From an uncultured Alphaproteobacteria bacterium (GTDB taxonomy: Bacteria > Pseudomonadota > Alphaproteobacteria > Rhizobiales > Xanthobacteraceae), in assembly GCA_963790975.1 (NCBI GenBank), contig CAWBQV010000005.1, forward strand, positions 124,948 to 188,947: a DNA stretch of 64,000 bases, written 5' to 3'. Positions 13,143-61,947 of the stretch are shown piece by piece (the first letter of the stretch is position 1; each line of letters opens with the position of its first letter). Below the pieces are notes generated by a model. It was not told the origin of the DNA and did no database searches. It saw nothing but the letters and a program-made list of their open reading frames with translations. A program made the translations under genes and the position numbers.

Positions 13143-13493
13143 TCAGCCGCGGCTTTCGTAGAAATCGCGCGGCATGCACTGGCGTGCCGTTCGCTCCGGC
13201 TTGCCGATATTCGTCGGCGTTTTTCGTAAAATCTTCTGGCGCGTCTCCCACTGCGTCGCGGGCGGCACGCTTTTGAGCGCGCGCTTGAGACAATGGTTCG
13301 GATCGCGACGGCAGGCGCGCAGGCGCCGGCACATCTTCATCCGGCAACGCAGCCACAGCGCAAAGGCGTCGCAATAGCGCCGCTGCTGCCGCGCCCGTTC
13401 CGCCGCATAGCGTTTGGCATAGTCCGCCAGCGCGCGTTTTGGCTTCGCCGTTATTGCCGCCTCACTTGAACGCGTTCCTTGGCGCGTCCGCAT
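13143..13493 (-). CDS. Cys/Arg-rich small protein, paralog of 60101..60454
   Basis: GGAGGA Shine-Dalgarno before ATG 13493. The 40-aa core RRYCDAFALWLRCRMKMCRRLRACRRDPNHCLKRALKSVP aligns without gaps to the second copy (20/40 identical, 5 conserved Cys). Confidence 0.5.
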   Translation of the reverse strand: MRTRQGTRSSEAAITAKPKRALADYAKRYAAERARQQRRYCDAFALWLRCRMKMCRRLRACRRDPNHCLKRALKSVPPATQWETRQKILRKTPTNIGKPERTARQCMPRDFYESRG

Positions 13494-13534: not shown

Positions 13535-13685
13535 GTCACCACCGGGCACAGCCGTTCGCTGAACGGCGTCGCTTCGCTCGCCTATGCCGGTGGTCCATGC
13601 TGACGTGACGCAACGCCAGCCATTCCTAATTTTGTTTCGGCCTCTTCGCCGCATGGATTGCCGGGTCAAGCCCGGCAATGACGAA
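13535..13685. repeat. two-hairpin composite repeat, copy with a 40-nt insertion in hairpin A
   Basis: GTCACCACCGGG (13535-13546) and CCGGTGGTCCATGCTGAC (13587-13604) are split by a 40-nt insert with its own hairpin GCCGTTC/GAACGGC. The unit ends with the 33-mer ATGGATTGCCGGGTCAAGCCCGGCAATGACGAA (13653-13685). Confidence 0.8.
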
Positions 13686-13706
13686 GAAGAAGGAACGGAC
13701 GAAAGA

Positions 13707-14147
13707 GAAGGAAGCGGAACGCCGGCAGGCGCAGTATTTCATGGCCCGCACGCAAGCGGCGTGCGGGGTGCACCACGGAAGAGGCGGCTTGCGCCGCCCT
13801 CCGCTTGCGGGCGCGCTCACCTGCCGACGTTCCACCACGGTTTTCGCCAGGGAGACTCTCGTCCCCGAGGCTCAGCTCCGGGCCAGGCTTCTCGGAACAC
13901 GGCGTGGCGGGGGTTACTCCGCCGGCGCCGCGCCCGGTTGCAGCGAAGCACCCCGCATGCCGGTCATAGTGCCGGCAGGCATGATGCCCGGGCCGCCCGA
14001 GTGCAGGGCTGATGAGGCCATGCCCGCGGGACACCGCACCCGCCCCATTCCGTCCGGCATCACCCGGACGGTGTCCTATCGGGCAGGATTTGATTCGGTC
14101 ATTTTGTCACCGAAACGGTGACCGACGTCAACGAGAATGTGACGATA
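13707..14147. other. conserved hairpin-dense noncoding module, copy 1 (candidate structured RNA; strand unknown)
   Basis: Collinear nucleotide similarity to 60847-61295 with conserved stems, variable loops, non-3n indels and a compensatory base-pair change. No credible ORF. Confidence 0.4.
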
Positions 14148-14289: not shown

Positions 14290-14382
14290 GTCACCACCGG
14301 GCTTGACCCGGTGGTCCATGCTGACTCGCCGAACGGGCGGGATTGGCGCATGGATTGCCGGGTCAAGCCCGGCAATGACGAA
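14290..14382. repeat. two-hairpin composite repeat unit
   Basis: GTCACCACCGGGCTTGACCCGGTGGTCCATGCTGACTCGCC followed by the identical 33-mer ATGGATTGCCGGGTCAAGCCCGGCAATGACGAA (14350-14382). Confidence 0.85.
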
Positions 14383-14441: not shown

Positions 14442-14534
14442 GTCACCACCGGGCTTGACCCGGTGGTCCATGCTGACTCGCCGGACGCGCGGCATTGCCA
14501 TATGGATTGCCGGGTCAAGCCCGGCAATGACGAA
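14442..14534. repeat. two-hairpin composite repeat unit abutting the GIY-YIG stop codon
   Basis: Same 41-nt hairpin-A segment as 14290. Identical 33-mer at 14502-14534. Confidence 0.85.
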
Positions 14535-14822
14535 TCAGACAATCTCGTCCCATAGATCGCGCCAGTCGGGATTCGTCGAGCGGATCAGGTCGATCTTCCA
14601 CCGGCGCGACCAATGTTTGATATTCTTCTCGCGTTGGATTGCGGCGATCGCCGTTGCGTGCTGCTCGTAATAGACGAGCATTTTGACATTGTGTGCATTC
14701 GTAAATCCTTCGACTGCACCTTCGCGATGCTCATAGACGCGGCGAACGAGATCCCGAGTCATGCCGACATAGAGCGTTCCGCGCGGCCGGCTTGCCAATA
14801 TATAGACCCAATAGCTTCTCAT
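14535..14822 (-). CDS. small GIY-YIG nuclease family protein
   Basis: MRSYWVYILASRPRGTLYVGMTRDLVRRVYEHREG...MLVYYE shows the GIY-(10)-YVG, Arg and Glu motifs. The longer track ORF start (14861) lies inside the repeat and is rejected. Confidence 0.85.
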   Translation of the reverse strand: MRSYWVYILASRPRGTLYVGMTRDLVRRVYEHREGAVEGFTNAHNVKMLVYYEQHATAIAAIQREKNIKHWSRRWKIDLIRSTNPDWRDLWDEIV

Positions 14823-14835
14823 GCCGGCCGTCAGC

Positions 14836-14868
14836 ATGGATTGCCGGGTCAAGCCCGGCAATGACGAA
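14836..14868. repeat. fourth identical copy of the 33-nt hairpin-B element
   Basis: ATGGATTGCCGGGTCAAGCCCGGCAATGACGAA, same orientation as the other three, 14 nt upstream of the GIY-YIG start. Confidence 0.85.
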
Positions 14869-42952: not shown

Positions 42953-43200
42953 GAAGCCGCAGAATAATCGAGAATAATTCCGCCGGCCGTTACCGACTTG
43001 CCATCGCGGAATTCCCGGCTTATATCGAATCCGTTCTGGGGATGGAGTTCCCCCGTAACCGCCATTCGGCTGATGACTCCTGCCGGGCGCTTGGCGTCGG
43101 TAGGAGTTTTCTTTTGCTCCCACTGTCTCCAAGACTGTTTATGTGACCGTTCGAAACGGGCGCGAGCCCTGTTGCGAGCGATCGCGCCGCGCATAGGAGA

Positions 43201-60100: not shown

Positions 60101-60454
60101 TTACGACTCGGCTTGAGTTTTGGCGCGGGTTTTCTGATTCTTCGCATCGTGCAGGCAAAGCGAATAGTGCGCATAGTGGTGGGCCATTCGGATGAAGCGG
60201 TCGGCATTTGCGGACGCCTCGGCCAGCATCCGATCGTGCGCGGCAACGCCGGCGTCGTACGGAACGCTCTGCCATCGGCTTTGCAGACAAGCGCCCTGAT
60301 CCCCCCTGCATCGCCTGGCGCTGCGGCACGGCCTGTACCGGCAGTCGCGCCAGAACGCGAACATGTCGCAATATTTCCGCGCGACGATCGCGCAGGCGGC
60401 GTCATGGCGCGCCTGCCATTCGTGCGGCGACAGCTTCTCTTCGCTTTTGCTCAT
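60101..60454 (-). CDS. Cys/Arg-rich small protein, paralog of 13143..13493
   Basis: AAGGAG Shine-Dalgarno before ATG 60454. Core RKYCDMFAFWRDCRYRPCRSARRCRGDQGACLQSRWQSVP shares the C-x8-C-x4-C-x5-C-x6-C pattern with the first copy. Confidence 0.5.
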   Translation of the reverse strand: MSKSEEKLSPHEWQARHDAACAIVARKYCDMFAFWRDCRYRPCRSARRCRGDQGACLQSRWQSVPYDAGVAAHDRMLAEASANADRFIRMAHHYAHYSLCLHDAKNQKTRAKTQAES

Positions 60455-60846
60455 GGCAATAGTTCTCCTTCTCGCGATGCATTTCTTCATCCCGCCCCGC
60501 GCTAGCGGGAAAGCCACGTCGAAAACAGCGTTTGGAGATGACGAATTTTTCAAGGTAGGGATTGGCATCGTTAGCCCGTCACAGCGAGGCATTGAAGCCG
60601 CATTTTGGCTGGCGAGGTAGAGGCGAGCCATTCGACGTAACGCATCCTGAGTACGCACTTTCGTCCGTGGTTCGGTGCGGGGGGCGGGAAGGCCACAATC
60701 CGATTCAGGCGTCGCGTCGAGTGGCCTACTTTAGCGGATATCGCTATACCCCCCCGCTATCGCGGGGGCGGATAATTCTTCACCGTTCTCGCGACGCATT
60801 CGCGCCCGAGGTTTTGCAAAAGGAAATTTCAAGAACCTCCCAAAAA

Positions 60847-61295
60847 GAAGGGAGGCGAAGCGCCGAAAGGCGCATCCAACCATTGGCCGCGTCAGGGTGA
60901 CGGGCGTTGCCGCCCATCCAACCGTCGCCGCGGCGCGCGTCCAGCGGGACGCGCTCGCCTTTCGGCGCTCCACCGCGGCTCTCGCCGGAGGCTTTTGGCC
61001 CTACTGGCTCAGCTCCAGGCCATGCTTCCTGGGACGTGGATCCAGCGGGCGTTACCCGCCATCACCTGTCCCAGTCCAGGGACAGCACCTCCCGCGCCGG
61101 CCGTAGTACCGGCGTGAATGATGCCCGGAGCCGCCCGGGCGCGGCTCGTAACGCCGCGCGCGGGGACCGCCCTCGTTCCACTTTCGAAAGTACCCTCGCG
61201 AAAGTACCCTCGCGAAAGGCCCCTCCGTGAACGAGATGGGGGATTGTATCCGATATGGTGACGGATGTCAAGAGAGTGTCACTAATAAAGTGACA
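60847..61295. other. conserved hairpin-dense noncoding module, copy 2 (candidate structured RNA; strand unknown)
   Basis: Collinear with 13707-14147. It contains the GNRA-capped stem GCGCC-GAAA-GGCGC, a GCGGG-CGTTA-CCCGC hairpin, a GCCGG-8nt-CCGGC hairpin and a 3' GTCAC/GTGAC hairpin. No credible ORF. Confidence 0.4.
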
Positions 61296-61306
61296 AGGCG
61301 CAACCC

Positions 61307-61947
61307 GTAGGATGGGTAGAGCGTAGCGAAACCCATCATCTTTCTATCGGCCCATCATCGCTCCCCGAAACCGCGCTCATTGTCCACCGCATCTCCCGCC
61401 CAGTCGAGCGGATAGACGCCAAGCCGCACCATGCGATGAAACGACGAATACGGCCAATCTCTCACTCGGCTGACATGTCCATGCTTCACCGGATTGAAAA
61501 GAATGTAATCGACGTGCCGCGCGAGATCCGCTTCGTCGCGCAACGTGTGCTCCCAATAGCGCCGCTGCCAGATGCCGCGCTCGGCTTTGCCGGCGCGGCT
61601 CTCTGAAATCCGCTCGCCTGCCGGCAGAGCGCGGGAGAATGCCGATTTGATCTGCCGCCAGCGCAGCGCAAAGTCAGCATCATCTTGCGGCAATGTCCAA
61701 ACCGCATGCAGATGATCGGGCAGGACAACGATCGCGTCGATTTCGAACGGATGGCGCCGCCGCACTTCACGGAATGCTTGGCGCAGCAAATCGATGTAAT
61801 CGGTAAGCAGACGCAGCCGCCGTTCGGCGAGATTTACCGTGAAGAAAAAGCTGCCGCCGGAAATAAAATTGCGTCGATAGTTGGTCATCGCCTCAGCATT
61901 GCAAAACCGCCGAGGCGATGGGTTTCGCTTCGCTCTACCCATCCTAC
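61307..61947 (-). mobile_element. REP-RAYT-REP unit (REPtron-like)
   Basis: GTAGGATGGGTAGAGCGTAGCGAAACCCATC (61307-61337) and its inverted copy GATGGGTTTCGCTTCGCTCTACCCATCCTAC (61917-61947) flank the transposase gene. Confidence 0.75.
61355..61888 (-). CDS. REP-associated tyrosine transposase (RAYT, IS200/IS605-like Y1 HUH enzyme)
   Basis: MTNYRRNFISGGSFFFTVNL...VVLPDHLHAVW (HUH motif)...RGIWQRRYWEH...HVDYILFNPVKHG (catalytic Tyr region). Start at the internal Met 61888; the longer track ORF runs into the REP. Confidence 0.8.
   Translation of the reverse strand: MTNYRRNFISGGSFFFTVNLAERRLRLLTDYIDLLRQAFREVRRRHPFEIDAIVVLPDHLHAVWTLPQDDADFALRWRQIKSAFSRALPAGERISESRAGKAERGIWQRRYWEHTLRDEADLARHVDYILFNPVKHGHVSRVRDWPYSSFHRMVRLGVYPLDWAGDAVDNERGFGER

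Follow-up and report, generated by a model that had tools for sequence, protein, structure and literature searches.

The window analysed here is a stretch of 64,000 nt from an uncultured alphaproteobacterium of the Xanthobacteraceae (contig CAWBQV010000005.1, assembly GCA_963790975.1). Two parts of it, of about 450 nt each, are collinear in alignment, and each contains, on the minus strand, a non-coding RNA gene whose product is about 395 nt long and highly structured. Each RNA gene is preceded by a promoter and followed by an open reading frame (ORF) for a small Cys/Arg-rich protein. These features were placed as follows.

13699..14096, minus strand: RNA copy 1 (family-1 type), about 398 nt, from approximately 14096 to 13699 (nhmmer)
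14103..14131, minus strand: promoter of RNA copy 1, -35 TTGACG at 14131..14126, 17-nt spacer, weak -10 GACAAA at 14108..14103
14143..14139 and 14122..14118, minus strand: GTCAC pentamers of copy 1
13143..13493, minus strand: ORF1, 116-aa paralogue (P0095) of the ORF2 product, Shine-Dalgarno GGAGGA, companion of copy 1
60839..61236, minus strand: RNA copy 2 (family-2 type), about 398 nt, from the predicted transcription start site near 61236 to the U-rich tail (nhmmer)
61243..61271, minus strand: promoter of RNA copy 2, -35 TTGACA at 61271..61266, 17-nt spacer, -10 TACAAT at 61248..61243
61294..61290, 61282..61278 and 61262..61258, minus strand: GTCAC/GTGAC pentamers of copy 2
60101..60454, minus strand: ORF2, 117-aa Cys/Arg-rich protein (P0001), Shine-Dalgarno AAGGAG, downstream companion of copy 2

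The cores of the two RNA copies (13807-14030 and 60944-61164) were 71% identical across 229 nt (BLASTN, E 5e-18). A profile of the RNA family matched both by nhmmer, at 14131..13699 (-) with E 9e-70 and at 61272..60841 (-) with E 1.5e-100. This was in agreement with the original prediction, which had aligned the two stretches by eye. Neither BLASTN nor the profile found a third copy in the window.

The absence of a credible ORF, also claimed in that prediction, was borne out. Long stop-free stretches on both strands (median 66-88% of the length) might suggest a degenerate or frameshifted coding gene, represented by a 147-aa ORF on the plus strand or a 122-aa ORF on the minus strand. Such stretches are expected at 63% G+C. 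The variability by position modulo 3 was flat (0.204/0.196/0.172), indicating no codon periodicity. Distinct gap runs were distributed 89/51/41 by length modulo 3, and the indels were not restricted to multiples of three. No reading frame was common to the two window copies. Together with the strong RNA-type covariation and its G.U asymmetry (below), these results made a coding gene extremely improbable.

Relatives of the RNA were found well beyond the source genome. A protein-profile scan of 185,579 species genomes for the downstream ORF gave 55 loci. An RNA profile scan found the RNA in 50 of these loci, upstream of the ORF and in the same orientation; 43 of these RNA copies were full length. 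The five loci lacking a match included one with only 165 nt of upstream sequence and two with 3' remnants. All 55 were from metagenome-assembled genomes (MAGs), titled Xanthobacteraceae or unclassified (Alpha)proteobacteria with the exception of L054 (Stellaceae). A scan of metagenome contigs with the exact pattern of a conserved RNA segment gave at least 120 further loci, all with RNA copies of the full-length type. About 170 RNA sequences were assembled overall, and the nhmmer profile recovered all copies. The family is common among soil Xanthobacteraceae that have not been cultured, and metagenomes of peat and forest soil contain it in abundance; no cultured representative of the host clade was among the genomes and samples searched. 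The copies were 70-80% identical, with compensatory changes.

The two copies were compared with the 4227 models of Rfam 15, at gathering thresholds and permissively at E up to 10. These models include RNase P, tmRNA, SRP, 6S, riboswitches, HEARO, OLE, ROOL, GOLLD, raiA, group I/II introns, and alphaproteobacterial and Bradyrhizobium small RNAs (sRNAs). Both copies gave only sub-threshold noise from microRNA-type hairpins. With ten further member loci, the sole weak match within the RNA region was to Atu_C7 (in L142; 19 bits, gathering score 45). ARAGORN called no tRNA or tmRNA gene in the whole window, and no relevant description of the RNA was found in the papers searched. The RNA family is previously undescribed, new in both sequence and structure, and no known mechanistic class can be assigned to it. 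The core of the original prediction, an undescribed structured RNA, was therefore upheld by the lack of an Rfam match, the homologues elsewhere (at 50 loci in genomes and 120 or more in metagenomes), the strong, replicated covariation and the rejection of a MITE or IS end, the last two described below.

Promoter, strand and fold

A promoter consensus was built from the 131 copies, of 137 with enough upstream sequence, that could be anchored on the -35 hexamer. It read TTGACA, GTCNC at spacer positions 4-8, and then GT-TACAT, with a further GNGAC/GTCAC pentamer directly upstream of the -35 hexamer. The promoter stood at a fixed distance 5' of P1, the first helix of the fold. In a promoter scan that of copy 2 scored 11/12. 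The promoter of copy 1 was not called by the simple scan; it was read from the sequence and aligned to the family promoter.

The direction of this promoter was in agreement with the composition of the base pairs. Under the consensus fold there were 532 G.U and U.G pairs and 81 A.C and C.A pairs; on the reverse strand these numbers were 79 and 276. The minimum free energy (MFE) was lower on the RNA (ORF) strand in 42 of 42 sequences. For the two window copies, the minus-strand folds were 15-31 kcal/mol more stable, with z-scores of -4.84 (minus) and -3.95 (plus) for copy 2, and -3.80 and -2.00 for copy 1. On the basis of the conserved promoter, the excess of G.U over A.C and the lower MFE, the RNA strand is the minus strand. 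The GNRA and UUCG tetraloops were also on this strand. The original prediction had described the module on the plus strand, and what it called a 3' block is the conserved sigma70-type promoter of the minus strand. Reading repeats on the plus strand only can turn a promoter into such a block.

The GTCNC/GNGAC pentamers flank and invade the -35 region (61294..61258 and 14143..14118 on the minus strand of the window), and about 130 loci had them in corresponding positions. Those of family 2 are arranged as an inverted repeat, e.g. AGAGACAAA-N9-TTTGTCTCT in L086. They are probably the operator of a regulator common to all copies. The presence of the same motif around the -35 region in all copies suggests that this is a single transcription factor.

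A consensus structure was derived with RNAalifold from 42 genome-derived copies (set A3). It was then projected onto 73 metagenome copies (set A4), which were independent of the derivation. The structure contains 13 main helices in three domains, and four of the helices are long-range. The first domain, at the 5' end, consists of P1 and P2. The central domain (P3 to P10) is closed by P3 (GCGGU/GCCGC) and contains five hairpins (P4, P6, P7, P9, P10) as well as two long-range helices, P5 (15 bp) and P8; the junction nucleotides of its core are nearly invariant. The 3' domain is a three-way junction, in which the 19-bp long-range helix P11 encloses P12 and P13. P11 is followed by a C/U-rich sequence and a U-rich tail at the 3' end. 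An insert of about 65 nt after P9 is optional, and the tips of P12 and P13 are variable. In the window the helices of the comparative structure, all on the minus strand, are as follows.

Copy 1, 5' domain: P1 14088..14081/14045..14038; P2 14072..14048
Copy 1, central domain: P3 14037..14033/13841..13837; P4 14031..13996; P5 13995..13979/13888..13873; P6 13977..13958; P7 13956..13943; P8 13937..13928/13902..13892; P9 13923..13907; P10 13871..13846
Copy 1, 3' domain: P11 13836..13818/13731..13713; P12 13816..13789; P13 13788..13745
Copy 2, 5' domain: P1 61236..61230/61178..61171; P2 61204..61196/61188..61181
Copy 2, central domain: P3 61170..61166/60979..60975; P4 61164..61134; P5 61133..61116/61025..61010; P6 61114..61095; P7 61093..61079; P8 61074..61065/61039..61029; P9 61060..61044; P10 61008..60984
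Copy 2, 3' domain: P11 60974..60956/60872..60854; P12 60954..60935; P13 60934..60886

In A3, 91.4% of the 4871 pair cells were standard pairs, and 62 of the 118 pairs changed on both sides. None of 500 shuffles reached any of the five measures used, and sliding the partner by 1-3 columns left only 40-46% paired. In A4, 92.5% were paired and 70 pairs (580 cells) changed on both sides; again 0 of 500 shuffles came as high, and the slid controls gave 38-45%. The covariation called for by the original prediction was therefore strong, and was replicated out of sample. The RNA has two of the features generally looked for in an independently transcribed non-coding RNA gene, namely covariation beyond controls with strand asymmetry, and a conserved promoter of its own on the RNA strand. 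The single-sequence MFE fold of copy 2 (z = -4.84) recovered most of the comparative helices.

The individual stems that had been read by eye fared less well, and mostly differed from the helices of the comparative fold. A stem CCGGG/CTCGG, thought to be changed in a compensatory manner to CCAGG/CCTGG, scored 0.043 against 0.039 for shuffles in 75 copies, and 82 of 500 shuffles scored as high. One half of it is part of P8 and the other of P5, two separate long-range helices that are themselves supported by covariation. A misalignment accounted for the apparent exchange of CCGG-8nt-CCGG for CTGTCCC-6nt-GGGACAG. The CCGG hairpin, P6, is present in both copies (13977..13958 and 61114..61095), and the other motif is composed of the 3' strand of P7 and the 5' strand of P8.

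The two strands of P11 are each self-complementary (CGCC-GAAA-GGCG and GCGCC-UUUC-GGCGC), and could form two local hairpins instead. The long-range duplex was supported by pairs 538/699, 545/692, 547/690 and 548/689. Pair 538/699, which lies outside the local hairpins, was A:U in 22 sequences and G:C in 17. In the variants CGCCGAUAGACG and CGCCGUCAAGCG, a local hairpin is disrupted but the A:U pair with the partner strand is kept. These covarying outside pairs and the retention of the long-range pair in the variants favoured the P11 duplex.

A further pairing may exist between the two ends of the RNA. The 5' AAGGA/AGGGA and the 3' UCCUU/UCCCU contain an invariant GGA/UCC, and one position differs in a complementary manner between the two RNA families. 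A closing helix or pseudoknot between AAGGA and UCCUU would be compatible with these data. This is tentative, as its register slides among the copies, and purine/pyrimidine composition alone could explain the pairing.

In P2 of copy 2 there is a 14-nt tandem duplication (CUUUCGCGAGGGUA; window 61190-61225, minus strand). It is common to the near-identical L001 and L002, and absent from the other family-2 copies.

Genomic context and the Cys-rich protein family

Most copies of the RNA were found apart from the Cys-rich ORF. Among the matches listed, 61 metagenome copies had at least 900 nt of downstream sequence; 11 of these were followed by the ORF, and 50 had no such ORF anywhere in the locus. 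The next gene, as judged from ORFs supported by third-position G+C in the metagenome loci listed, was on the same strand in 22 cases and convergent in 17 (17/39). Ten same-strand neighbours belonged to ten different Pfam families (UbiD, luciferase-like, GFO/IDH/MocA, TctC, aminotransferase, CMD, TyrRS, glyoxalase, inositol monophosphatase and fumarase). All-against-all clustering of the flanking ORFs from the at least 120 metagenome loci gave no family in more than four loci.

The fold was kept equally well in all contexts. Pairing was retained at 92.3% in ORF-less copies, 91.8% in copies with a convergent neighbour and 92.2% in ORF-linked copies, and the ORF-less copies keep the promoter. Because ORF-less copies and those with convergent neighbours keep promoter and fold, the RNA is a gene in its own right, standing alone and under its own selection.

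The ORFs that do accompany the RNA form a family of their own. The products of ORF1 and ORF2 are 33% identical (E 7e-12), as expected from the original prediction that the two flanking minus-strand Cys/Arg-rich ORFs are paralogous. The family motif is RRYCDxFxxWRxCxxKxCRxxxxCxGDxxxCL, with five conserved Cys residues (C-x8-C-x4-C-x5-C-x6-C). Separate searches gave 94 and 167 clusters of relatives, and a profile search 1017; all are annotated as hypothetical, and all named sources are uncultured Xanthobacteraceae. No match to the protein was found in Pfam, NCBIfam, PHROGs or the PDB sequences. An AlphaFold model was all-helical (predicted local distance difference test, pLDDT, 81).

The linkage between protein and RNA proved real but one-sided. 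The ORF nearly always occurs with the RNA, but most RNA copies do without the ORF. Even among RNA copies of one cluster (80% identity or more), the ORF is present at some loci, whereas syntenic relatives have lost it or have repeats of the REP (repetitive extragenic palindromic) type in its place. Each of the two ORF subfamilies is associated with a different RNA cluster. Eight MAGs hold two ORF loci each, like the window, and in the four of these with loci in the RNA clustering the pair consists of one family-2 and one family-1 cassette.

In L008 the gap between RNA and ORF is only about 65 nt, and no convincing sigma70 or sigma54 promoter for the ORF was seen by eye in the RNA-ORF spacer. 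This suggested that the ORF is probably expressed by read-through from the RNA promoter. In both ORF subfamilies (spacers of L008 and the family-1 loci) a conserved hairpin, CUCGGGCGC-loop-GCGCCGCGAGAAsGGAGA, lies just before the Shine-Dalgarno sequence, with a conserved motif, TTTTTGCAA, upstream of it. The spacers of family 1 (L036, L037, L043, L055 and others) contain a terminator-like hairpin, GGCAGG-CCCCACC-CCUGCC, followed by U's. These spacer elements may control expression of the ORF separately from that of the RNA.

The close arrangement of RNA and ORF raises the possibility that the RNA is a cis-acting leader of the Cys-rich ORF. It could be a riboswitch or attenuator, or serve autoregulation by binding the product of the ORF. 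The fold would then sense a ligand or protein and control read-through at a terminator formed by P11 and the U-rich tail, and the ORF-less copies would be orphans. The position of the RNA directly upstream in 50 of the 55 ORF loci, the gap of down to about 65 nt with no visible sigma70 promoter, and the competition of P11 with its two local hairpins would fit such a leader. So would the CCUCCC tail of family 2, which can pair with a conserved downstream GGGAGG, and the family-1 spacer hairpin, as a second terminator.

On the other hand, a riboswitch would be expected in the 5' untranslated region of a same-strand gene in essentially all representatives, with functionally coherent genes downstream. 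Neither was observed, given the 50 of 61 copies lacking the ORF, the 17 of 39 convergent neighbours and the ten unrelated Pfam families. The ORF-less copies keep promoter and structure equally well, and covariation favours P11 over the local hairpins. The RNA is also better conserved (71% nucleotide identity) than the protein (33% amino-acid identity). A riboswitch or leader was therefore rejected as a general explanation, and we consider it unlikely as the role of the RNA.

Like riboswitches, T-box leaders and ribosomal-protein leaders, the RNA lies upstream of the ORF on the same strand, where there is an ORF. It also has a terminator-like 3' end (a long G+C helix and a U-rich tail), and mutually exclusive pairings are possible. 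It differs from them in that most copies have no cis gene and the downstream genes are unrelated or convergent. It is about twice as large as the largest common riboswitch aptamers, and has an operator-like promoter architecture of its own.

In L004, L005 and L007 the genes of gltX and citrate synthase come after the family-2 cassette (RNA and ORF). The gene downstream is instead that of a thiamine-diphosphate enzyme in two cases, the window and L080, the latter with the RNA but no ORF.

Comparison with known RNAs and candidate function

To our knowledge, bacterial RNAs of several hundred nucleotides with so much conserved, covarying structure are rare. Those of such size whose function has been worked out are mostly ribozymes, cores of ribonucleoproteins (RNPs), guide RNAs or self-assembling RNA structures.

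The RNA resembles in kind the large "ornate" bacterial RNAs that comparative genomics has brought to light (OLE, ROOL, GOLLD, raiA and the HEARO/IscB omega-RNA). In common with these are the size of several hundred nucleotides, a multi-domain fold with long-range helices and near-invariant junctions, and variable hairpin expansions at fixed sites (here the insert of about 65 nt after P9, and the P12 and P13 tips). Restriction to a lineage, environmental abundance, and a function not evident from the neighbours are also common to them. The present RNA has no covariance-model match to any of these, and its host is the uncultured soil Xanthobacteraceae. ROOL and GOLLD are often prophage-associated, unlike the present RNA. 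HEARO adjoins an IscB/HNH gene and OLE an operon with an oapA-like membrane protein, neither of which is found here. The only recurrent neighbour of the present RNA is the uncharacterised Cys-rich protein of 115 aa.

Another possibility is a trans-acting base-pairing sRNA, the C/U-rich 3' tail of which would mask the ribosome-binding sites of its targets, with the fold serving as scaffold and stabiliser. The tail (CCUCCCUCC, CUUCCUU or CCUCCUUUCU) resembles the anti-Shine-Dalgarno end of 16S rRNA. It hardly varies among 115 copies, and none of the covarying helices includes it. As is the case for sRNA families, a genome has two or more paralogous copies, all of them with the same operator-like promoter motif, and anti-Shine-Dalgarno sRNAs such as AbcR and CcsR occur in Alphaproteobacteria. 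However, 395 nt with 13 conserved helices and invariant junctions is far beyond what a seed scaffold needs, and the conserved 5' AAGGA/AGGGA may occupy the tail by pairing with it within the RNA. The core CCUCC is also not kept in most family-1 copies, which have CUUCC. We regard a base-pairing sRNA as quite improbable.

The CcsR ("cuckoo") RNAs of Rhodobacter are likewise alphaproteobacterial, with several paralogues, a C/U-rich CCUCC-type motif and coupling to a small ORF; their genes are physically coupled and co-transcribed with a small DUF1127 ORF. They are hairpin RNAs of about 80-100 nt located downstream of the ORF, with the motif in loops, whereas the present RNA is a multi-domain molecule of 395 nt located upstream of an ORF that is not DUF1127, with the motif in the 3' tail, and has no Rfam match. 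RsmY/RsmZ and Qrr also have two or more diverged paralogues per genome with a common motif around -35. These are 100-150 nt long with repeated short protein-binding loops, whereas the present RNA has no repeated GGA-loop architecture and its fold is a single large, tertiary-looking structure.

The best explanation overall, in which our confidence is about evenly divided, is that a stand-alone folded RNA acts in trans, and not as a cis-regulator, and that the Cys-rich protein is an optional partner. In size, invariant junctions and domain organisation the RNA exceeds the needs of a seed scaffold or attenuator, and it persists where there is no cis target; a trans-acting folded RNA is favoured by these features. 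It would most likely be the RNA core of a small RNP, or a protein- or ligand-binding RNA. In the ancestral cassette, the gene of the small, basic Cys-rich protein would have followed the RNA at a distance of 60-400 nt and had no promoter that could be recognised as its own. As the only recurrent neighbour, with subfamilies that track the RNA clusters and paired cassettes in MAGs, the Cys-rich protein would be the best candidate for a partner, although a dispensable one.

Several points weigh against this trans-acting RNA or RNP. The transcription start site, the 3' end and the read-through were all deduced from sequence, and the simple scan called no canonical intrinsic terminator at the RNA end of either copy. 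The ORF is lost in most RNA copies and so cannot be an obligatory cis partner. A Foldseek comparison of the AlphaFold model with the PDB gave no fold match, and hence no functional clue to the protein. The RNP mechanism itself is a choice among several options and not a demonstrated function, and binding between protein and RNA is putative.

A more far-reaching version is possible but doubtful. In this version the RNA would be a new class of large functional RNA, ribozyme-like or an obligatory RNP core, specific to soil Xanthobacteraceae and with a novel activity. Small, basic Cys-rich (Zn- or Fe-S-binding) proteins of a new family would be its dedicated partners, and it would be controlled by one transcription factor through the GTCNC operator. 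The coupling of the RNA to the protein recurs, and the protein family is large, with more than 1000 clusters but no annotation, Pfam domain or structural relative. The strand, boundaries, promoter, 13-helix model and about 170 sequences provide a basis for direct experiments on both RNA and protein. The narrow, uncultured host range tempers the significance.

Mobile elements and neighbouring features

Several mobile elements lie in the vicinity of the RNA genes. Two of them are in the RNA-ORF spacers of the window, outside the RNA.

13653..13683, plus strand: REP-like 31-mer between RNA copy 1 and ORF1
60469..60800, no strand assigned: MITE-like (miniature inverted-repeat transposable element) insertion, 317 bp, between RNA copy 2 and ORF2

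Both spacers are thus enlarged by insertions. In the MITE-like insertion, TTCTCGCGAyGCATT is directly repeated (60469 and 60786), and there are inverted arms of 21 nt (60489-60509/60753-60773). It is absent from the orthologous spacer of L008, in which the ORF starts about 65 nt after the RNA.

These elements brought up the question of whether the RNA is itself part of a mobile or selfish element, such as a MITE, the end of an insertion sequence (IS), a REP-like repeat, or the guide or ribozyme RNA of a transposon. The flanks vary among copies, two copies lie within 64 kb, and REP, RAYT, MITE and IS1595 elements are found beside or inside several copies. Nevertheless, the conserved unit runs from the promoter to the U-rich tail, in place of the terminal inverted repeats and target-site duplications that would bound a MITE or IS, and the nearby mobile elements are separate insertions with repeats of their own; a MITE, IS end or REP was rejected on these grounds and on the identity of only 70-80% between copies. 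Such identity with compensatory changes indicates long-term purifying selection on the fold, and not recent transposition. In several MAGs the family-2 copies keep their synteny, being located upstream of ORF-gltX-gltA, and within about 1 Mb of flanking sequence each locus had a single copy. Among the neighbours there is no recurrent transposase, integrase or nuclease family. There is no constant adjacency to an effector gene, as is expected of guide RNAs (HEARO-IscB, TnpB omega-RNA, IS110 bridge RNA), and the IS1595 elements interrupt the RNA rather than flank it. No match was found in plasmid collections (BLASTN, both copies), a phage collection (BLASTN, copy 2) or viral contigs (pattern scan). 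A mobile-element origin of the RNA is therefore very unlikely.

The original prediction had pointed to a GIY-YIG gene beside copy 1 and a RAYT gene beside copy 2. Both are present, but they lie upstream of the RNA promoters, not downstream of the RNA, and are unrelated REP-type elements that adjoin it by coincidence. The 31-nt REP-like sequence (ATGGATTGCCGGGTCAAGCCCGGCAATGACG) occurs in four exact copies on the plus strand of the window (13653-13683, 14350-14380, 14502-14532 and 14836-14866), with inverted partners nearby. The small GIY-YIG ORF (14535-14861, minus strand) lies between two of these copies, and its proximity to the RNA is therefore a coincidence. The IS200-like/RAYT (Y1_Tnp) ORF (61355-61942, minus strand) is bracketed by a 40-nt inverted repeat (61298-61337/61917-61956, 95% complementary).

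The sole gathering-level Rfam match in the window was a fluoride riboswitch (crcB motif, RF01734) at 43029-43089 on the plus strand (57.9 bits, gathering score 34, E 1.8e-13), which has no relation to the present RNA.

Elements of the IS1595 transposase family interrupt the RNA in three independent loci (L007/L019, about 440-2330; L016, about 1028-2739; L032, about 1058-2650). L016 and L032 belong to different RNA subfamilies and carry the IS in opposite orientations, and in both the RNA is broken at the same position (profile 224-237). This suggested that IS1595 elements may have a target preference for the RNA gene.

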